Under the pieces are notes generated by a model, which was given only the letters and a program-made list of their open reading frames with translations, was not told the DNA's origin and did no database searches. From NCBI GenBank assembly GCA_002773945.1, contig PEZT01000028.1:4034-68033 (forward strand): 64,000 nt of DNA. The letters run 5' to 3'. Below, piece by piece: positions 1,207 through 61,510 of the stretch (position 1 is its first letter; the number at the start of each line of letters is the position of its first letter). Source of the stretch: Candidatus Beckwithbacteria bacterium CG10_big_fil_rev_8_21_14_0_10_34_10 (GTDB lineage: Bacteria; Patescibacteriota; Microgenomatia; UBA1400). The position numbers and the translations under genes were made by a program.

Positions 1207-1323
1207 CCCCGGCTGTGAGGTATTTTCGCGTGGCTGAGAAGCCAGACTATCGTCCCCGCTGAGGCGTTTAACTATCCTGTTCGGAATGGAAAGAGTGGTT
1301 CCACCTCGCTTTAACAACCGGGA
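1207..1323 (-). rRNA. rrf: 5S rRNA
   Basis: The reverse complement contains CCATTCCGAACAGGATAGTTAAACGCCTCAGCGGGGACGATAGTCTGG, matching the conserved 5S core. Terminal helix I pairs CCCGGTTGT with ACAGCCGGG. It lies just downstream of the 23S gene on the same strand. Confidence 0.85.
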
Positions 1324-1379
1324 AATATTTAATTTTAATATTAACTCTCTGAACAGTGAATAGAAATCAGACCTTTACG

Positions 1380-4548
<3,169 letters not shown>

Positions 4549-4584
4549 AAAGATCGTTTTTCTATTCACTTTTCAAAGAGCTAG

Positions 4585-4656
4585 TGGACCCAGTCGGGAT
4601 TGAACCGACGACCTTCTCGTTGCAAACGAGACGCGCTTCCACTGCGCCATGGGCCC
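4585..4656 (-). tRNA. tRNA-Ala (anticodon UGC)
   Basis: The reverse complement is GGGCCCATGGCGCAGTGGAAGCGCGTCTCGTTTGCAACGAGAAGGTCGTCGGTTCAATCCCGACTGGGTCCA. It has a cloverleaf with anticodon loop TTTGCAA and the G3:U70 Ala identity pair. It sits in the 16S-23S spacer. Confidence 0.92.
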
Positions 4657-4843
4657 ATATACTAAAAAAGTCTCCCGAAGGAGACCCATTAAACTCATGA
4701 GAAAAAGCCTTAAAAAAACGCCTTTCTAGCCACAAAAAGTTGCCCGGTTATGGCATTGAAAATGTTATGGGCTTTTCTACTCATTAAGTTTAAAAAAACT
4801 CCTTTAAATTGAATTTTAACAGATATACTTTAAGGTGTCAATG

Positions 4844-4917
4844 TGGGCTATCCAGGATTCGAACCTGGGACCTCTGTCTTATCAGGACAGCGCTCTAACC
4901 AACTGAGCTAACAGCCC
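4844..4917 (-). tRNA. tRNA-Ile (anticodon GAU)
   Basis: The reverse complement is GGGCTGTTAGCTCAGTTGGTTAGAGCGCTGTCCTGATAAGACAGAGGTCCCAGGTTCGAATCCTGGATAGCCCA. The anticodon loop is CTGATAA. It is the typical spacer tRNA. Confidence 0.92.
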
Positions 4918-5020
4918 TTTTTGACAATCTTAAATAGTGGTAGGAATTAAAAATGTACTTTTTACCAAGATTACTCTTGGTCTGGAAATCTGATCGTGTA
5001 TCAGAAACCAAATCTCCTAG

Positions 5021-6516
<1,496 letters not shown>

Positions 6517-6593
6517 AAAAAAATTTCCTACCACTACTTAAGTTGTCAATTTAAATTTACTCTCCAAATTTATTCAATTCTAAAAATATTTAG

Positions 6594-8182: not shown

Positions 8183-9598
8183 TTAAGAAGATAATTTAGT
8201 TAGTTTTACTCTTAAAACTTGGTAAGGTTTCAGATTCTGATTTAAAACAATACTTCCGCCTTTAACAGTCACTTGTTTTTCTTCAGGCTGGGAAAAAAGC
8301 TCTTGGATAAACAGTCGATATTGGCCATCTTTTATCCCTCCAAAACTAATATTAAAAGATTCTTCAAAAGGGTTTTGGGCTTGATAATTAGAAAGAATTA
8401 AGATTGTAGTCCGATTATCAAAAACAGCAAAGCCAGTAATCTGGGTCCCCTCACCTAAAACTTCCACTCTGTTACCTTCAAATTCAGCCAACCAATCATA
8501 AAGTAAATACCGAGGTTTTTCTTTGACTCCCCCCTCTGTCAATTCATGAGTTAAAAGACCCCAGGCTTCTTGACCTTGATTAGGTCCATCTTTAACTTCA
8601 AAAGCAAAACAATATTTAGTTTTGTCTAAAAGCTTTCTTAAAATATGAACTGCATGAGAGGCAGCGATTGAACTGGAATAAGCGGTATCTTTTTCTGAAT
8701 TAGGTCCCCATTCAGTCAAAAGCTTTTCTGTATTTTGAAATTTTTTGTATTTAGGTTGACTCTCAATAACATTTATTTGATATACATCATTTAAAAATAC
8801 TTCTGGTAAAAAGCTGTAGCGGTGCCAGGAAACAAAATCTAACCTCAAATTGTTAGCTAAAACATAATCATATAAAAGCCTAATCCAAACCGGATCTAAT
8901 TCAGGAATAGAAGGGCCTCCAATTTTAAAAGGTTTGACTCCCTGAGCCTGCAAAGCTCCTAAAACAGAATATTTATATAATTCTAAATAGTTCTTTTCAC
9001 CATACATTTTCCAACCCCCAAACCATTCTAAAGACGGTTCATTCCAAACCTCATAATATATTTCCTCTGTATCCTTTGAATAGTGTTCAATTGTCTGTCT
9101 AACTAAGTCCTGCCAGTCAGCCCAGTTATTGGGTTTGCCTATCTTGCCCGGACCAACTTCTTCTGGTAGATAAGTTAAAGAGAAAAAGGGTTTAGCTCCA
9201 GTGGCCTTAATATCATCAACTGTTTCATCCAGTTTAGACCAATCAAGATCAAGTTTACCTCCTGACCGACCTTTAACTACACCATAATAATCATCATCAT
9301 AAATATGGTCCAATCTAATATAATCAAGCTGAAGCTTTTTAACTTGGTTCACTGTAGCTTCAATCATTCTCGCTCCTGAAGCTTCTTCTCCTCCTTGAGC
9401 TAGGGCTCGCCAGGTCCGAGGAATAGAACCATAATTGCGTTGAATATTAACAATAATATCCGCTGGTTGAAAAGGTCTGGCTAAATACGTTTCTGGAATT
9501 CTAACTTTTACTTCCTTTTCAATTAAATAAAAAGGGACAAAAAGAAACAGAATAATTAATGTAAAAAAACTAATAATAATTTTTTCTTTATTTATCAT
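8183..9598 (-). CDS. Membrane-anchored glycoside hydrolase, GH-A clan (GH39/GH5-like)
   Basis: 471 aa. N-terminal TM segment. YEVWNEPSLEWF carries the NEP catalytic acid/base. The remainder has a TIM-barrel glycosidase-like pattern. Confidence 0.6.
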   Translation of the reverse strand: MINKEKIIISFFTLIILFLFVPFYLIEKEVKVRIPETYLARPFQPADIIVNIQRNYGSIPRTWRALAQGGEEASGARMIEATVNQVKKLQLDYIRLDHIYDDDYYGVVKGRSGGKLDLDWSKLDETVDDIKATGAKPFFSLTYLPEEVGPGKIGKPNNWADWQDLVRQTIEHYSKDTEEIYYEVWNEPSLEWFGGWKMYGEKNYLELYKYSVLGALQAQGVKPFKIGGPSIPELDPVWIRLLYDYVLANNLRLDFVSWHRYSFLPEVFLNDVYQINVIESQPKYKKFQNTEKLLTEWGPNSEKDTAYSSSIAASHAVHILRKLLDKTKYCFAFEVKDGPNQGQEAWGLLTHELTEGGVKEKPRYLLYDWLAEFEGNRVEVLGEGTQITGFAVFDNRTTILILSNYQAQNPFEESFNISFGGIKDGQYRLFIQELFSQPEEKQVTVKGGSIVLNQNLKPYQVLRVKLTKLSS

Positions 9599-14747: not shown

Positions 14748-15617
14748 ATGAATAAATTTAAAACTTTTCTTTATGCTTTTAGAAATAGTGCTTTTAAACC
14801 AAAATATTATGCTGATATTTTAAAAACCCCTTTTTCTTTTTCTGTTAAATATTTTGTATTCTTATTTTTATTCTTAAGTTTTATTACTGTTCTTAGTATT
14901 TCCTATCCCCTTATAACTGATTTTAAACCAGCTTTAGAAAAATTTAAAAATGATGCTCCCAAACTTTATCCAACTGAATTAGTTTTGGATATTAAAAATG
15001 GCTTAGTCTCTACTAATGTTTTAGAACCATATTTTATTCCTCTTGAACCAAGTCTTTTTCCTGAAGAAATTAAAATGGGTTTAGAAAAACAGCCAATCCA
15101 AAACATCCTGGTAATTGATACCTCAGTTCCGGCTTCAGAAATAAAAAAATATCAAACTGTGGCTCTTTTAACCAGAGATTCTTTAGCTATATTAGGTGAC
15201 AATAATGAAATAAGAATCCAAACCCTTGAGGAAATAAAAGAATTCCATTTAGACAAAGAAATAGTTAAAACAGGTTGGGGTATGATTGTTCCCTATTTTA
15301 AATATATTATTCCTGGTATTATTATTGTTTTAATTATTTTTGTGCCTTTATTTACTTTAATAGGTAAGTTTTTCTTCCTTATGTTTTTCTCTCTTATTAC
15401 TTTAATTACTGCCCGACTTTTTAGCAATAAAGAAGTCAATTATTCTAAAGCTATCCAGCTTAATCTTCATGCCATTACTTTACCCATTATAATTGTTTCT
15501 CTTTTTCAAGCTTTCGGAGCCCCACCTAAAATTCCTTTCTTCCAATCAGGAATACTTTTAATCTTTAACTTAATTATCTTTTCTTCTTTAAAAGAAAATT
15601 CAGAAGAAGTTAAATAA
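14748..15617 (+). CDS. Hypothetical integral membrane protein
   Basis: 289 aa with multiple predicted TM helices. Confidence 0.45.
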   Translation: MNKFKTFLYAFRNSAFKPKYYADILKTPFSFSVKYFVFLFLFLSFITVLSISYPLITDFKPALEKFKNDAPKLYPTELVLDIKNGLVSTNVLEPYFIPLEPSLFPEEIKMGLEKQPIQNILVIDTSVPASEIKKYQTVALLTRDSLAILGDNNEIRIQTLEEIKEFHLDKEIVKTGWGMIVPYFKYIIPGIIIVLIIFVPLFTLIGKFFFLMFFSLITLITARLFSNKEVNYSKAIQLNLHAITLPIIIVSLFQAFGAPPKIPFFQSGILLIFNLIIFSSLKENSEEVK

Positions 15618-16107
15618 ACTTACCAAAAAGGTAAAAATCTTTTTTATAGCGGTCTTTTTTTCTAATTCCTTCTATAACAAAACCAAGTTTTAAATAAAAA
15701 CCCCTATTTCGACCATCAGTGATAAATCTTAATTTATGGCAGTTTTTAGTCTGGGCCCATTTTTCCCCTCTTTTAACTAATCTCTTACCTATCCCTTTAT
15801 TCCTAAAGTTTTTATCTACCCAAATCCAGCGAAGTAAAGAAATGCCTCCAATTTCAGAGGAAACAACAATAAAGGCAATTGTTTTATCCTTTCTAACGCT
15901 AAAAATCCCAATCTTACCCCTTTTAAACCTTTTTTTAAAATTCTTTTTACTCCAAATTTTTCTTAAAAAATATTTCTTTCTTCTCAAGGGAAGATGAAGA
16001 AAATCGGTCAATAAGGCTCTTCTAAAAACCGGGTAGAAACGGTCATAGCTTTTTATACCAATTCTTTTTAGTTTTACTTCTTTCATAAAAGTGCCTAATT
16101 GTAGCAA
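15610..16107 (-). CDS. GNAT family N-acetyltransferase
   Basis: 165 aa. WVDKNFRNKGIGKRLV matches acetyl-CoA-binding motif A (R/QxxGxG/A). Confidence 0.65.
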   Translation of the reverse strand: MLQLGTFMKEVKLKRIGIKSYDRFYPVFRRALLTDFLHLPLRRKKYFLRKIWSKKNFKKRFKRGKIGIFSVRKDKTIAFIVVSSEIGGISLLRWIWVDKNFRNKGIGKRLVKRGEKWAQTKNCHKLRFITDGRNRGFYLKLGFVIEGIRKKDRYKKDFYLFGKFI

Positions 16108-16132: not shown

Positions 16133-17305
16133 TTAAGAATAGTCTTTTAAAACTTCAGCTAAAATTCCGGCAAAGGCGTCTCTTTTCTCCTTATTTTTTC
16201 TTATCCTAGCACTAATCTCCATCTGAATAATATTAAAACCTTCCCCAAAAGGTGGGTGTTGGTTTTTATGAGTTATCATTTTCCTTCTATATATACTTAA
16301 GCCTACTTCTGTCCCGGCAAATGCCTTAGTCTTTGGATCATTTTGGATAGCCAAAACTACCTGAGGAACTTCATTTTCTCCAACCATAAAACCTTTATTT
16401 TTTATCTCTTCTTGTAATCGAGAAATAAATTTATTTCGTAAATCCTGATCGGCAATATTTTTAGCCCCGGCAATGGCAATATCAAAACCCTCTCTATTGG
16501 CCATTCCGTGCAAAGCAACTCTTAAAAAAGGTCCCTTTACTTTACCGTCTTCATCTAAACCAACCGTTCTTTTAACTATTTTTTCTAGTCCCCAAAAAAG
16601 AGCTGCCCGACTGCTTCGAGAATATTCCCGGGAAAAAATTTGTTTTTCTCCCAATTCAGCCATTCCCCTAACCCACCAATTTCTATTCATATCAGCCCAT
16701 AGGCGCGGTTTCTTAGCTACTATTGTATTAACATCCAAAAGCTGACTAACTTGTCTAGCTAAAAGACCAGTATCCTGATCATAAAGATCTCTTACCTTTA
16801 AAACTTCTTGATCAAAGTAATCTAAACTTTTTGTTTCTTTTTTTTCAAATTTCTTTATTCTTTCTAAAGATAATTCTATCTCATTAATCTTCAAGTCAGG
16901 ATATTTTTGCTTCATTAACTGCCATAATTCAGCAGAATTTGGCAGCTGTTCATGAACAGCATCAACTACAATCGGAAGATTTCCATCTTTAACTTCTAAA
17001 TATTTGTTAATTGCTCTTTCTTTAATTTTTTCATCTTCTTGAGAAGCGTCAGGTTTAGCAACTGATTCAATCTGACTAGCTTGTTGTTCATTTAAGTCAA
17101 TTAAGGCTTTACCTTCTTTTACTCTAACTTGCCTAGGTCTTCCTCTAACTGTTTTTTGTTGCCATATTTCTTCTTCTTCTCTTACTGAATGAATATCAAT
17201 TACCCCTTCTCTTCTTTCTCCTCTATCAGTTATTCCAGCATCTTTTAGCTGTTCCACTATTTGTCTAATTTTCTCGGGTCTCTTTACAGGAGGTTCTTCG
17301 CTCAT
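16133..17305 (-). CDS. N-formylglutamate amidohydrolase (FGase)-like Zn hydrolase domain protein with acidic N-terminal extension
   Basis: 390 aa. The C-terminal half (...ALHGM...FDIAIAGA...GLSIYRR...FNIIQMEIS) resembles the FGase (PF05013-like) fold. It is adjacent and co-directional with two ATP-grasp genes. Confidence 0.4.
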   Translation of the reverse strand: MSEEPPVKRPEKIRQIVEQLKDAGITDRGERREGVIDIHSVREEEEIWQQKTVRGRPRQVRVKEGKALIDLNEQQASQIESVAKPDASQEDEKIKERAINKYLEVKDGNLPIVVDAVHEQLPNSAELWQLMKQKYPDLKINEIELSLERIKKFEKKETKSLDYFDQEVLKVRDLYDQDTGLLARQVSQLLDVNTIVAKKPRLWADMNRNWWVRGMAELGEKQIFSREYSRSSRAALFWGLEKIVKRTVGLDEDGKVKGPFLRVALHGMANREGFDIAIAGAKNIADQDLRNKFISRLQEEIKNKGFMVGENEVPQVVLAIQNDPKTKAFAGTEVGLSIYRRKMITHKNQHPPFGEGFNIIQMEISARIRKNKEKRDAFAGILAEVLKDYS

Positions 17306-17306
17306 T

Positions 17307-18722
17307 TTAAAACCCTATTCCTTTATATATTAATCTAATACTTTGTTTAACCTCATCTTTAAGTCTTTGGCCATCTTTTTTGAGAATACTTTTTTTAAAG
17401 ATTAGATGACCCATTCGTAATAAAGGACGAATTGTACTGCCAGTCCTAGGAACACCATCTACTAAAAGGAATTCTTTTTGGGGATTTTTAATTGATTTTG
17501 TAGTAAAACCTTCTCTAATAAATTTAAGTTGTTGACTACCTAATTGATAAACTCCAGCTTTAATCTCCCCTTTAGTCTTTCGATATTTAGCCACTTTATT
17601 ACTTAATATTAAATGACTCCCTTTTTTTGAATTTTTGTAAATTCTATCAACTCTGTCAAAATTCATTTGATAGTTTATATTTAAAAGCTCTAAAAGGTGA
17701 AAAACATCAAAAGGCGGTTCTTTATTTTCTTTTTGGAGCATGGAATAAACTGGAAAAGCACCAGTATATCGAGGGTTACATTCACAGGCATATACCTTTT
17801 CTGTTTCTTTATCTATTATAAGGTCTATTCCAAATATCCCCCTATAACCTCTCGCCCCCATATAGCTTCCAATTGATCTGGCTAAACTTTCAGCTTGAGC
17901 TTGAATTTTAGAAGAATAGGTTTTAAAACTCCAATCATGACCGCAATAAAGACCACTCCCCTTATTCATGTTGACTACCAAAGGTTGATCTAAAATCTGT
18001 TTTTGGACGATGCCGGTTAAAACTCCATGGCGGGTGATACAACCGGTAATACTAGGAGAATCACCAGTAATAAATTTATAGAGGATAACCCTTTTTAAAT
18101 CAAAAGTATTTTTATATTTTTTAGCTTTTTTTGTGAAGTTTTTAAAATCTGAAAGGGTTTTAATGAAAACCAAGGAATTACCACCACCCTTGGTTAATTC
18201 TGGTAAAATTAAGACTAATTTTTTCCACCGCTTTAAATATTTTTCTAGTCTTTTTTTATCTAGTTCTTCAATTTTAAAAGTTTCATTAGGAATGGTTTCT
18301 AAACCAATCTTTTGAAGCATTCTTTTAAAATGCCATTTATTCTCATAAACATCCCTAACTTTGGCCCTATTAGCTACAATAGTCAGTCCTAGCCGATCAC
18401 AAATTCTTTCTACTTTTTTAGTTGAGTGATATAAAACTAAATAAGGGAATCTCAAAGAAGCTAAATATTTTTGCACCTGACGGTTTTTTAGTAAAGCCAA
18501 AGTATTATATTTCCCAACCTTTTCTCCTTTTTTTAAAAAATCCTTTTCTACCGATAGAACTTTAATCTTTTTTCCTATTACTTGATTATCCAAAGTGTCT
18601 TTAACACATAAAAGCTGGTAGTTAGGTAAAACCAAGCCTGGCCCGATCCTGGAAAAAGCAGTAATACCCACCCCAATTAAAGGATAAGGAAAAGACTTAA
18701 GTTTGTTTAAATAGTCATCCAT
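17307..18722 (-). CDS. ATP-grasp domain enzyme (amidoligase-like)
   Basis: 471 aa. GIFGIDLIIDKETEKVYACECNPRYTG is the ATP-grasp catalytic-loop signature (E-x-N-x-R). Confidence 0.6.
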   Translation of the reverse strand: MDDYLNKLKSFPYPLIGVGITAFSRIGPGLVLPNYQLLCVKDTLDNQVIGKKIKVLSVEKDFLKKGEKVGKYNTLALLKNRQVQKYLASLRFPYLVLYHSTKKVERICDRLGLTIVANRAKVRDVYENKWHFKRMLQKIGLETIPNETFKIEELDKKRLEKYLKRWKKLVLILPELTKGGGNSLVFIKTLSDFKNFTKKAKKYKNTFDLKRVILYKFITGDSPSITGCITRHGVLTGIVQKQILDQPLVVNMNKGSGLYCGHDWSFKTYSSKIQAQAESLARSIGSYMGARGYRGIFGIDLIIDKETEKVYACECNPRYTGAFPVYSMLQKENKEPPFDVFHLLELLNINYQMNFDRVDRIYKNSKKGSHLILSNKVAKYRKTKGEIKAGVYQLGSQQLKFIREGFTTKSIKNPQKEFLLVDGVPRTGSTIRPLLRMGHLIFKKSILKKDGQRLKDEVKQSIRLIYKGIGF

Positions 18723-18804
18723 ATTAAAAAATATATCATATTTAAAACTAAAAAACTCACTTAAAAGCGAGATTCTTTAGATCCTAAATTAAAAACAGAA
18801 AAAA

Positions 18805-20112
18805 TTATTTTATATCCGAACTAACTAAAAAACCCTTAAGGTCTCCTCTACCAATAATCATCGGCCTTTTAAGATTCGACCTGTCAGAAATATTGGCCGT
18901 GGTTTTTATTTTTTGGCCACTTAAGAAAAAGGTGACTGGAACAACTGGTCTTTTCTGCCTTCCTAAGGCTGATTTATAGACACCTTCAAAAAGAATATTT
19001 TCCGGGTGTAAAAGCCCAAGTTTTTGCGCCAGTTTTCTATCAATTGAAGTGGTATAAGCGCCAGTATCTACTTTTGCTTGAACTGAAATCCTATCTCCTA
19101 AAAAAGACTGTACTTCTACTTGGTGAAAAACATTAACAGTTTTTTTACCGGTAACTATATCTCTAAGTTTTGGATCCAAAAAAAGGGCTTTGGCTATTTT
19201 AATTCCTTTTTCCGGACTATCTACCTCTAAGCCCTCAACTCTTTCTAATCTTCTTCTTAAACCAGCTTTGTTAGCTAACTGAATTTTTAAGCCTGGCTGA
19301 GCATTAAGCTCTAAAACCTTAGGAAAGGTTTTACCTGGTTTTTTTAATGACGGTTGAAGAGCAATATCTACTCTCATAAAGTTGAGTTCGGGCACAGTAA
19401 GCTGACAGTTAATCGCTAATTTAAGAATCTCGTCCCAGATTGGTATTTTTATTCCCTTTAATTTCCTTCTAGTTCCGGGAAAAAAATCGATCTCTTTACT
19501 TCCCTTAACCCCACCAATAGTAATCCCAGAAGAAATATCAATGCCGCAGGCAATTGCACCCTGATGCATATTAGCCCTACCTCCTGATTCTTTGGTGGGC
19601 AGTCTTAAAAAAGCCATCACCGGGATTCGGTTAAAAACCACTACTCCAATGTCTGGGGTTCCACCCCAACTAACTTTTTCAAAAATGGGATGAACTCTAA
19701 TTCTTTCTTCTACAAAAGCAAAATCTGGCTGACCCCTCATGGAAAACCGACCTTCAATAATTTCTCTAAGTAAAAGCTTTAAATCATTTACTGTTTTTGT
19801 ATCTTCCGTTGTGGTAATCCATTCGCCCGCATATCGACCCTGTCTTTCAATTACTAAAATTCCTTCTCCTCCCAAAGAATTATCTGGTTTAATCACATAA
19901 CTTTCTGGTAATTTTTTAAGAAAATTAAATTTATCAATGTCTTCAAATCTTCTAAAAACGCGGTAGAGCTTAGGAATAGGCAGTTTTGCTTTTCTTAAAA
20001 CGTTTTTAGTTAGAAGCTTATGATTGGCAATAAGTTTGCCCCCTTTTTTGTTATACTTTGAGGAGAAAAGAACATTACGAGAATTTAATCCTAAAATATC
20101 CCGGGTTTTCAT
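18805..20112 (-). CDS. RimK-like ATP-grasp (alpha-L-glutamate-ligase-like) fused to a C-terminal retropepsin-like/PF05618-type protease domain
   Basis: 435 aa. The N-terminal two-thirds is ATP-grasp (GGRANMHQG region). The C-terminal KVDTGAYTTSIDRKLAQKLGL contains the D-T-G-A aspartyl-protease-like motif, a domain typically found with RimK homologues. Confidence 0.6.
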   Translation of the reverse strand: MKTRDILGLNSRNVLFSSKYNKKGGKLIANHKLLTKNVLRKAKLPIPKLYRVFRRFEDIDKFNFLKKLPESYVIKPDNSLGGEGILVIERQGRYAGEWITTTEDTKTVNDLKLLLREIIEGRFSMRGQPDFAFVEERIRVHPIFEKVSWGGTPDIGVVVFNRIPVMAFLRLPTKESGGRANMHQGAIACGIDISSGITIGGVKGSKEIDFFPGTRRKLKGIKIPIWDEILKLAINCQLTVPELNFMRVDIALQPSLKKPGKTFPKVLELNAQPGLKIQLANKAGLRRRLERVEGLEVDSPEKGIKIAKALFLDPKLRDIVTGKKTVNVFHQVEVQSFLGDRISVQAKVDTGAYTTSIDRKLAQKLGLLHPENILFEGVYKSALGRQKRPVVPVTFFLSGQKIKTTANISDRSNLKRPMIIGRGDLKGFLVSSDIK

Positions 20113-21026
20113 TCCAAAAGCTTTTTAAATTTTTTGTATTCCAAAATCCTTAAACCAGCATAACGACCAATAAAGATATCTAAAAGAGCCACCCCTAAAA
20201 CACTAATTTCAGGTTTTAAAATAACAAATTTTTGCAAAAATTCCAGCTGAAGAACAAATGAACAGATTAAAGCCACTACTAAGGTTTCAAAACTCATTCT
20301 TAAAGCTCTTTTCATAGACATCCCAATTTGGATACTAATAAAGCTTTCTGCCAAAAGAATAAGGATTAGAATAGGAAAAATAGAAATATTCGTAATCGCA
20401 GTTAGATTCAAAGAAGGAGAAATACACATTAGGCCAAAAACAGCTAAGGAAACAAACCATAAAAGCAAAGCCATTCTGGGCAAATATTGAAGCTTCATTT
20501 TTCTAAAAAGTATTCTCGCTCCCATGGCCACCAGAATAATGGTAAAAAACAGTAACAGACCTTCAAAAATCCCAGTCGCCACAAAAGCGACTGATAAAAC
20601 AGCCGGTAAAAAGATCCCAAAACCCTTCATCCCCACAATATGGCGGGAACCGGCAATTAATGCTACTACTAATGGAAAAAGAAGAATTAAAACAATGGTA
20701 TTGGCTGGCACCCCCTGAGAAACCGCTCTTCTTATAGCATGCTGCAAAAAATTAGTTACTCTTAAAGACCCAATTGAATGATTAATTAAATACTTTTCTA
20801 GTTTTCCTTTAACTTCTGGAGTAGACTCAGTAATATCTTCTTTTTTCTCTACTTTTTCCTTTTCCTCAATTACTTCTCCTGTTGTTTCTGCTGAAGTGGT
20901 CGCCATCGCCGCCTCGGTAGCAGTTTGCGAAATTAAATCTTCCCCTTCTTTTTCTGCCAGAACTGGAAATTTAGAAAATGAAAAAAGAAGAAATAACCCA
21001 ATAAAAATACCAATTAATTTTTTCAT
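20109..21026 (-). CDS. 7-TM membrane protein (7TM partner of ATP-grasp/RimK systems; no transglutaminase head)
   Basis: 305 aa. Signal peptide, a ~70-aa Glu-rich extracytoplasmic segment, then 7 hydrophobic helices. The start overlaps the stop of the upstream ATP-grasp gene (ATGA overlap). Confidence 0.5.
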   Translation of the reverse strand: MKKLIGIFIGLFLLFSFSKFPVLAEKEGEDLISQTATEAAMATTSAETTGEVIEEKEKVEKKEDITESTPEVKGKLEKYLINHSIGSLRVTNFLQHAIRRAVSQGVPANTIVLILLFPLVVALIAGSRHIVGMKGFGIFLPAVLSVAFVATGIFEGLLLFFTIILVAMGARILFRKMKLQYLPRMALLLWFVSLAVFGLMCISPSLNLTAITNISIFPILILILLAESFISIQIGMSMKRALRMSFETLVVALICSFVLQLEFLQKFVILKPEISVLGVALLDIFIGRYAGLRILEYKKFKKLLE

Positions 21027-21097
21027 TGAAATTATTATATCAAGTTGAAAGATTTTTGACTAGATAAAGCTAAATTCTTATTAAAACTAATCTCTTT

Positions 21098-61433: not shown

Positions 61434-61437
61434 ATTG

Positions 61438-61510
61438 TGGGCCAGGATGGATTCGAACCGTCGACCCCTATCTTATAAGGATAGTGCTCTAGCCGCTGAG
61501 CTACTGGCCC
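61438..61510 (-). tRNA. tRNA-Ile (anticodon UAU)
   Basis: The reverse complement is GGGCCAGTAGCTCAGCGGCTAGAGCACTATCCTTATAAGATAGGGGTCGACGGTTCGAATCCATCCTGGCCCA. The anticodon stem CTATC/GATAG is perfect, the loop is CTTATAA, and anticodon positions 34-36 are TAT. Confidence 0.8.

Follow-up and report, generated by a model that had tools for sequence, protein, structure and literature searches.

What do four adjacent genes make together when they combine two ATP-grasp enzymes with a protease, a hydrolase and a membrane protein? This question is raised by positions 16133-21026 of a 64-kb stretch of DNA (the whole of which we refer to as the window) from Candidatus Beckwithbacteria bacterium CG10_big_fil_rev_8_21_14, a member of the Patescibacteria or Candidate Phyla Radiation (CPR). 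The genes are named g1 to g4 in transcription order. By analogy with characterized systems we favour, with moderate confidence, the explanation that they encode a cytoplasmic, ATP-dependent machine that would write and erase peptides while docked to a membrane partner, as a compact CPR counterpart of the Rlo and RimK-RimB systems.

The initial annotation of the window described four co-directional genes that are tightly spaced or overlapping, which agrees with the list of open reading frames (ORFs): four ORFs, all on the minus strand, tile the region exactly. The g2 start codon lies on the g1 stop codon (ATGA, an overlap of 4 nucleotides, nt), 82 nt separate g2 from g3 and a single nt separates g3 from g4 (TAA-A-ATG). 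The annotated order had to be reversed, since the gene for the seven-transmembrane (7TM) protein does not follow the others but is the first, upstream gene, and the gene for the hydrolase, likened to formylglutamate amidohydrolases (FGases), is the last. The genes and the domains of g2 are:

20109-21026, minus strand: g1, 305 amino acids (aa), RloB-like 7TM membrane protein without transglutaminase head
18805-20112, minus strand: g2, 435 aa, RloC-type ATP-grasp with a C-terminal RloA/RimB-type retropepsin-like peptidase
19234-20079, minus strand: ATP-grasp domain of g2, aa 12-293
18823-19140, minus strand: retropepsin-like domain of g2, aa ~325-430 (~110 aa)
19057-19068, minus strand: catalytic DTGA of g2, aa 349-352
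17307-18722, minus strand: g3, 471 aa, stand-alone ATP-grasp, distantly related to PRK06524
16133-17305, minus strand: g4, 390 aa, divergent amidohydrolase of predicted FGase fold (FGase or poly-gamma-glutamate-hydrolase-like)

The GC content is ~32-34% across the region, and the four proteins are identical to the NCBI hypothetical proteins COT75_04715, COT75_04720, COT75_04725 and their neighbour. Their length and their hundreds of homologues show that they are not chance ORFs.

Ligase and protease are joined in g2. Profile searches place its ligase domain in PF14397 (ATPgrasp_ST; 8.5e-58, 196 bits against a cut-off of 31.4) and g3 in PF02655 (ATP-grasp_3; 7e-9, 36.4 bits against a cut-off of 23.2), in line with the annotation of two ATP-grasp enzymes. 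The DTGA region, described as PF05618-like, matches that family (4.8e-9, 36.7 bits against a cut-off of 27) as well as the RloA1-3 models (RloA3 1.4e-7), and its best sequence matches among the solved structures of the PDB are 9G59 and 9G58, both RloA, followed by Lpg0085 (2PMA) and then by the Ddi1 and ApRick retropepsin-like proteases. Where a RimK-like ligase fused to a protease had been annotated, the fusion holds but the RimK part does not: in a Pfam scan neither g2 nor g3 matches PF08443 or PF18030 (Rimk_N) at E<=1, and its profile matches place the g2 ligase in the ATPgrasp_ST/RloC family rather than in RimK proper. Among 21 homologues at 54-74% identity the catalytic motifs are intact, with K75, D249, E268 and N270 (E-x-N Mg site) as well as G81-G82-x-G84 invariant in the ligase and K347, D349, G351, A352, R388, R411, G421, R422 and D424 (G-R-x-D) invariant in the protease. 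The fusion is not a peculiarity of the window either, as the 120 best-matching relatives are 425-462 aa long, cover 97-100% of the query and in nearly all cases contain both PF14397 and PF05618. No hydrophobic segments are found in g2, g3 or g4, hence the soluble parts of the system are all cytoplasmic.

The membrane partner g1 matches PF14402 (7TM_transglut; 1.4e-25, 90.6 bits against a cut-off of 25) over aa 112-303. It aligns with the NCBIfam RloB model at positions 312-506 only, of 508, which means that it has no transglutaminase head, as had been annotated. A signal-peptide-like segment (aa 3-25) is followed by ~80 aa of acidic/lysine-rich low complexity and then by a hydrophobic block (aa 101-292); at least 85% of 59 homologues share the residues E227, Q233, R293 and E296. 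With a median of 290 aa, CPR homologues are headless as a rule.

Neighbourhoods were compared for the best 80 of more than 595 GTDB species-representative stretches that encode g2 relatives, all with near full-length alignments. Their hosts are Beckwith-, Woese-, Shapiro-, Levy-, Blackburn-, Moran-, Kaiser- and Saccharibacteria as well as DPANN and other archaeal metagenome-assembled genomes. In 79 of the 80 loci the fusion gene is immediately preceded, on the same strand, by a g1 homologue; the remaining locus ends at a contig edge. Overlapping in the window and found together throughout these hosts, g1 and g2 are a translationally coupled core pair. The co-conservation that was expected for all four genes holds for this pair and is uneven for the others, g3 and especially g4 being lineage-restricted accessories and not core parts.

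Which known system comes closest? Judged by domain families this is rloABC of Pseudomonas aeruginosa and P. fluorescens (Lormand et al., mBio 2025; PMC12239564), followed by RimK/RimB. RloA is a secreted retropepsin-like peptidase that cuts runs of at least eight Glu, RloC is a cytoplasmic ATP-grasp with 24% identity to RimK, and in P. aeruginosa a triple protease mutant is rescued from hypo-osmotic lethality by deleting rloB or rloC (PMC12239564). RloA residues K46, R114 and R137 coordinate poly-Glu and mutating them abolishes function; 9G59 and 9G58 are the RloA structures that Lormand and collaborators deposited (PMC12239564). Poly-Glu or polyglutamylated substrates were proposed, the product not being known (PMC12239564), which leaves the annotated absence of a known product true, although the proteobacterial counterpart of the system does have a name, genetics and a protease specificity (PMC12239564).

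The window shares with rloABC three families, namely the PF14397/TIGR02291 ATP-grasp, the PF14402 7TM module and the PF05618 peptidase with DTGA. The basic residues by which RloA binds poly-Glu also appear to be present in the window's protease domain, where, to judge from the alignment with 9G59 and from spacing, K347, R388 and R411 probably correspond to K46, R114 and R137. The differences are clear as well: RloA has a signal peptide and is secreted as a protein of its own whereas the window's protease is the cytoplasmic C-terminus of g2; RloB has a periplasmic inactive transglutaminase head whereas g1 has none; and the order in the window is 7TM followed by ligase-protease, with the ATP-grasp g3 and the FGase-fold g4 appended. 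Moreover, the host is a CPR bacterium, whereas RloB is reported mainly from Proteobacteria, which contribute 96% of its matches (PMC12239564). RimK/RimB combines a cytoplasmic ATP-grasp ligase with a cytoplasmic PF05618 protease that trims its poly-Glu product (PMC12239564). This partnership, with or without RimA, is the likeness to the window and suggests the same write/erase logic, RimK/RimB being a polyglutamylation system whose acceptor is ribosomal protein S6 with its C-terminal Glu. It differs in that g2 lies outside the RimK family, in that ligase and protease form one polypeptide and in that the 7TM partner is obligatory. Since two Rlo features are missing (the separate secreted protease and the transglutaminase head) and the assignment to the RimK family failed, the window's system is a member of neither. 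Neighbourhoods of ATP-grasp, 7TM-inactive-transglutaminase and pepsin-like-peptidase genes, which are the domain families of the window, were reportedly predicted by Iyer, Abhiman, Burroughs and Aravind in 2009 (Mol Biosyst 5:1636), and the Pfam families PF14397 and PF14402 are said to stem from that work. A comparison with Klebsiella CfmP was set aside, that protein belonging to another ATP-grasp family (TupA-like).

How would such a machine work? From the analogy with RimK/RimB and from rlo genetics we infer a logic of writing and erasing. The g2 ATP-grasp would add amino acids, most likely Glu, onto an acidic chain or tail, and the g2 retropepsin domain would dimerise and cut the acidic chain made by the ligase. 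With synthesis and trimming in a single polypeptide, chain length or abundance would be set by their balance, as in RimK/RimB. Glutamate is the most likely substrate of g2 given the names of its homologues, the conservation of K347, R388 and R411, and charge: both g2 domains have a positive net charge in 21/21 homologues, which is weak evidence because CPR proteins are generally Lys-rich. For the remaining proteins we infer roles around this core. Having lost the periplasmic inactive-transglutaminase head of RloB, g1 may receive or export the product, or it may anchor and regulate g2 via its conserved cytoplasmic C-terminal tail. A plausible task of g3 would be to prime the chain or to add a different residue or linkage, whereas g4 may be a second eraser, removing a terminal, N-acyl or gamma-linked glutamyl unit beyond the reach of the endopeptidase. 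A role in signalling or surface modification, as was first suggested for the locus, is speculation.

What g3 and g4 are can be stated in part. Over its full length (aa 14-462) g3 matches NF005096/PRK06524 with 2.7e-38, at 131 bits and far below the cut-off of 684; it has no close relative that is solved or characterised, the best PDB match being a biotin-carboxylase domain at E=0.01. A search gave 117 homologues, and in a set of 36 sequences at least 90% retain GGG179-181 (Gly-rich loop), D300, E314-x-N316 and R318. On its profile scores g3 falls in no specific characterised subfamily. In Woesebacteria (L035 6570-8954; L044 5362-7737; also P0199 and P0206) the g3 homologues are longer, a conserved domain of ~300 aa being fused to their C-terminus, for which Pfam gave no match at E<=1.

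The annotated FGase-like nature of g4 failed at the level of the single sequence but was borne out by fold and family. On its own, g4 remains sub-threshold for the FGase family PF05013 (13.6 bits against a gathering score of 28.9, E=0.074) and has no match in NCBIfam. A word-indexed search yielded two relatives and an exhaustive profile search 110 representatives, which form a separate, small and mostly uncharacterised branch. PF05013 is matched by 11 of 47 aligned members (best 4.4e-15), whereas the family profile has marginal matches only among PDB sequences (2ODF, E=0.17). An AlphaFold2 (AF2) model made with the 110-homologue alignment reached a predicted local distance difference test score (pLDDT) of 93.2 and a predicted template modelling score (pTM) of 0.90, against a pLDDT of 37.5 with a two-sequence alignment. 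Foldseek ranked the FGase-family structures 2ODF and 2Q7S as the top PDB matches of this model (E~1e-7), followed by the poly-gamma-glutamate hydrolases PghP (3A9L) and YndL (5ONJ) and then by M14 carboxypeptidases including the tubulin deglutamylase CCP5. In addition, hhalign aligned the g4 family with a canonical FGase from locus L012 (E=3.9e-5, 70% probability) along the motifs (S/P)RLxxDxNR, H(S/G)M and IQxEI. Because of the PF05013 matches in its family, the Foldseek ranking and this motif alignment, g4 is best described as a divergent amidohydrolase of predicted FGase fold. H118, N207-R208, E227, H266 and E363 are nearly invariant in its family and would be candidates for metal-binding or catalytic residues. 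It differs from the PF05013 FGases (2Q7S, 2ODF) and from PghP/YndL (3A9L, 5ONJ) by its sub-threshold sequence score and by an N-terminal extension of ~110 aa.

Where are these accessories found? Beyond the eight g3-bearing loci among the 80 (given below), a g3-type gene follows the fusion in L001 (a 71%-identical relative), L009 (Chisholmbacteria), L010, L093 and L095. Fusion and g3 overlap in L010 and are separated by 1 nt in L093, 12 nt in L095, ~38 nt in L078 and 76 nt in L009. No g4 homologue is present in any of the 80 GTDB loci, and a scan of metagenomes for g4 relatives gave one locus, L095. In L093/L094 and L095 the array 7TM-fusion-g3-g4 is complete, with overlapping or tightly spaced genes, a more distant member of the g4 family and ~45% identity to the window. 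As the fusions of L093 and L095 are 82% identical and thus represent one lineage, the four-gene block is known in two lineages, including that of the window. Unlike that of the window, the arrays of L093 and L095 lie between mevalonate/MerR genes and rplL-rplJ-rplA-rplK. L010, a relative of L093/L095, shares these flanks, but its fourth position is taken by a RimK-like gene plus a GNAT (8261-8782), a swap which indicates that the tail of the array is modular.

In 47/80 loci the 3.5 kb downstream of the fusion contain a RimK-type ATP-grasp gene, and both RimK-type and g3-type genes occur in three; tblastn with three RimK-like queries found none in the window. As a separate observation, g3-type genes are repeatedly followed, just downstream and on the opposite strand, by a gene for a distinct RimK-like ATP-grasp of 331-345 aa (L001 10082-11101, minus strand; L009 8024-9061, minus strand; L016, L017, L026 and L096). 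The window lacks this gene and has g4 and a GNAT gene in its position. It was also seen that many GTDB records titled 'uncultured Gammaproteobacteria/Pseudomonadales/Bdellovibrionales bacterium ... binchicken' carry a CPR-type fusion with a headless 7TM protein (L016, L020-L023, L026, L027, L030, L046, the last a 0.81-Mb 'chromosome', and others); the organism labels of these binchicken third-party annotation (TPA) assemblies look unreliable.

Around and between the four genes lie three further features:

21034-21062, minus strand: promoter-like site TAGTCA-17-TATAAT with extended TG, 10/12 matches, the top-scoring site of the region, directly upstream of g1
18756-18771, minus strand: weak terminator-like hairpin CTCGC-TTTTAA-GTGAG followed by TTTTTT, 6 pairs of which 3 G-C, in the g2-g3 spacer
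15610-16107, minus strand: possible fifth gene, a GNAT acetyltransferase (PF00583, 3.3e-12), 25-45 nt downstream of g4

The promoter-like site is a consensus match only, the number of such sites in the region not exceeding the shuffled expectation. The likelier start of the GNAT gene is the ATG at 16086, and its membership of the system is uncertain: orthology of the GNATs of L010 and L097 to that of the window is not detectable, and L093 has no GNAT gene.

Several results weigh against the write-and-erase explanation. The label 'glutamate ligase-like' is a name derived from homology, and RloC/ATPgrasp_ST enzymes have no determined product or substrate. To the corresponding model, TIGR02291 ('alpha-L-glutamate ligase-like'), g2 matches with 3e-69, its 233 bits lying below the equivalog cut-off of 314, which makes it a family member and not an equivalog. 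The protease is cytoplasmic here and secreted in Rlo, which implies a different spatial logic. The search for an acceptor gave no convincing poly-acidic run or acidic C-terminal tail among window ORFs of at least 70 aa. The unity of the four genes is also challenged, as a g3-type gene is found downstream of the fusion in 8/80 (~10%) loci (L014, L016-18, L026, L035, L044 and L078), g4 is known in the array from one lineage besides that of the window, and no ATP-grasp gene lies near the closest g4 homologues, P0122 and P0123. The hairpin at 18756-18771, itself a consensus match only, is a further point of this kind.

One alternative is that of two adjacent and independent modules, which we consider rather unlikely: g1-g2 would be a Rlo-like core, and g3-g4 a separate ATP-grasp and FGase pathway for a small molecule or dipeptide. 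Such a pathway might, for instance, produce an N-acyl or gamma-glutamyl compound and hydrolyse it again, and it would be functionally unconnected with the core. The 82-nt spacer fits this, with its terminator-like hairpin and a -10-like sequence; the hairpin may attenuate read-through into g3-g4. About 90% of the fusion loci lack g3, and g3 homologues occur without 7TM and fusion genes in L011, L012 and L096. In L012 (1-8225, non-CPR) the g3-like gene overlaps that of a canonical FGase, with a GshB/RimK-like ligase and an Opp-type peptide ABC transporter upstream, and in L011 (29-7578, likewise non-CPR) RimK and GshB-like genes and an ABC transporter share a cluster with a g3-like gene at its end. 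The closest g4 homologues, P0122 and P0123 (40-42% identity), are also located elsewhere, between PNPOx and DUF922 genes. However, a g3-type gene in fusion-bearing CPR loci is always downstream and on the same strand, often overlapping or at most 80 nt away, and the whole four-gene block has moved as a unit between genomic contexts, as seen when the window is compared with L093/L095. The distant, non-CPR g3 homologues, too, still accompany RimK/RimB-type genes. A RimK-like gene lies with the g3-like gene in L096, and in the Aenigmarchaeota locus L097 the g3-like gene is found with a GNAT, a RimB-like gene and two RimK genes.

Could the substrate be a glycan and not a peptide chain? In an envelope glycan or peptidoglycan system the ATP-grasp would amidate the carboxylate of a lipid-linked sugar or wall precursor with an amino acid, which we regard as improbable; equally improbable is the part left to the other proteins, in which the 7TM protein would handle a lipid-linked intermediate while peptidase and hydrolase edit stem or decoration. 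Pfam does describe PF14397 as associated with sugar transfer, three glycosyltransferase genes lie directly upstream in L009 and a PMT_2 glycosyltransferase is nearby in L003. The rlo phenotypes are tied to cell shape, beta-lactam sensitivity and possibly peptidoglycan (PMC12239564). Glycosyltransferase neighbours are, however, not conserved among the loci examined, where the 7TM protein alone is the invariant partner; the protease relatives of the fused domain cut poly-Glu peptides and the soluble parts are all cytoplasmic.

A further proposal concerns an anionic poly-amino-acid product at the membrane or exported through it: the headless RloB and the fused RloC-RloA would build and size-control such a poly-alpha-Glu-like chain, which seems distinctly unlikely to us. 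It is similarly doubtful that this chain would serve as an envelope or surface polymer, or as an osmoprotectant, that has so far gone unrecognised and is important for episymbiosis, and we give as little credit to the corollary that interchangeable ligases (g3, RimK-type) and erasers (g4, FGase/PghP-like) diversify its chemistry between lineages.

The least probable alternative is RimK-type tagging of the C-terminus of a ribosomal or other housekeeping protein, the 7TM protein serving as a mere membrane tether. The protease is cytoplasmic like RimB, RimK-type ATP-grasps follow the fusion in the 47 loci mentioned, the L010, L093 and L095 arrays abut the rplL-rplJ-rplA-rplK cluster and RimI/J/L-type GNATs recur nearby. 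In the g4 family, a zf-UBP (PF02148) gene lies directly after the g4 homologue in L007 (1268-2740) and the domain is fused to the g4 homologue in L008 (561-1712). The zf-UBP domain binds free protein C-termini, and its pairing with the closest g4 homologues hints at peptide tails as the targets of this hydrolase family. We nevertheless hold such tagging very unlikely, as g2 is not RimK (neither PF08443 nor a Rimk_N domain is reported for it), a purely ribosomal system would not need an invariant 7TM partner, the adjacency to ribosomal genes is limited to one lineage and no window ORF of at least 70 aa has an obvious acidic acceptor tail, rpsF not having been searched for. A defence system was rejected, PADLOC giving no match for any of the five proteins.

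The write-and-erase machine that we favour is not categorically new, since it is of the Rlo/RimK kind, with rloABC as a named and genetically studied prototype. What is notable is the fused, headless architecture conserved across Patescibacteria and DPANN, as well as the minority four-gene form with an extra ATP-grasp and a hydrolase of FGase/PghP fold. The Rlo-type pair is not essentially proteobacterial but widespread in Patescibacteria and DPANN, and the fact that such small genomes keep it argues that its function is important; in Pseudomonas the rlo operon plays a part in osmotic tolerance, biofilm formation and beta-lactam sensitivity. The CPR form is convenient for finding the product in vitro, as it unites ligase and protease in a single soluble polypeptide and retains only the 7TM core of the membrane partner. 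As a natural minimal form it also lends itself to asking what the 7TM module does when the transglutaminase head is absent. The recurrent pairing of a g3-type ATP-grasp with an FGase-fold hydrolase points to a second, uncharacterised ligase/hydrolase couple.

Elsewhere in the window a complete rRNA operon is found at 1207-6522 (minus strand), consisting of 16S, tRNA-Ile (GAT), tRNA-Ala (TGC), 23S and 5S genes, which explains the bump of 46% GC at 2-6 kb. Its 23S gene spans 3176 nt against a model of 2925 positions and has a group I intron at 1781-2057 (RF00028, 57.8 bits). ARAGORN further identified a tRNA-Ile with the anticodon TAT at 61437-61510 (minus strand), an uncommon way for bacteria to read AUA.

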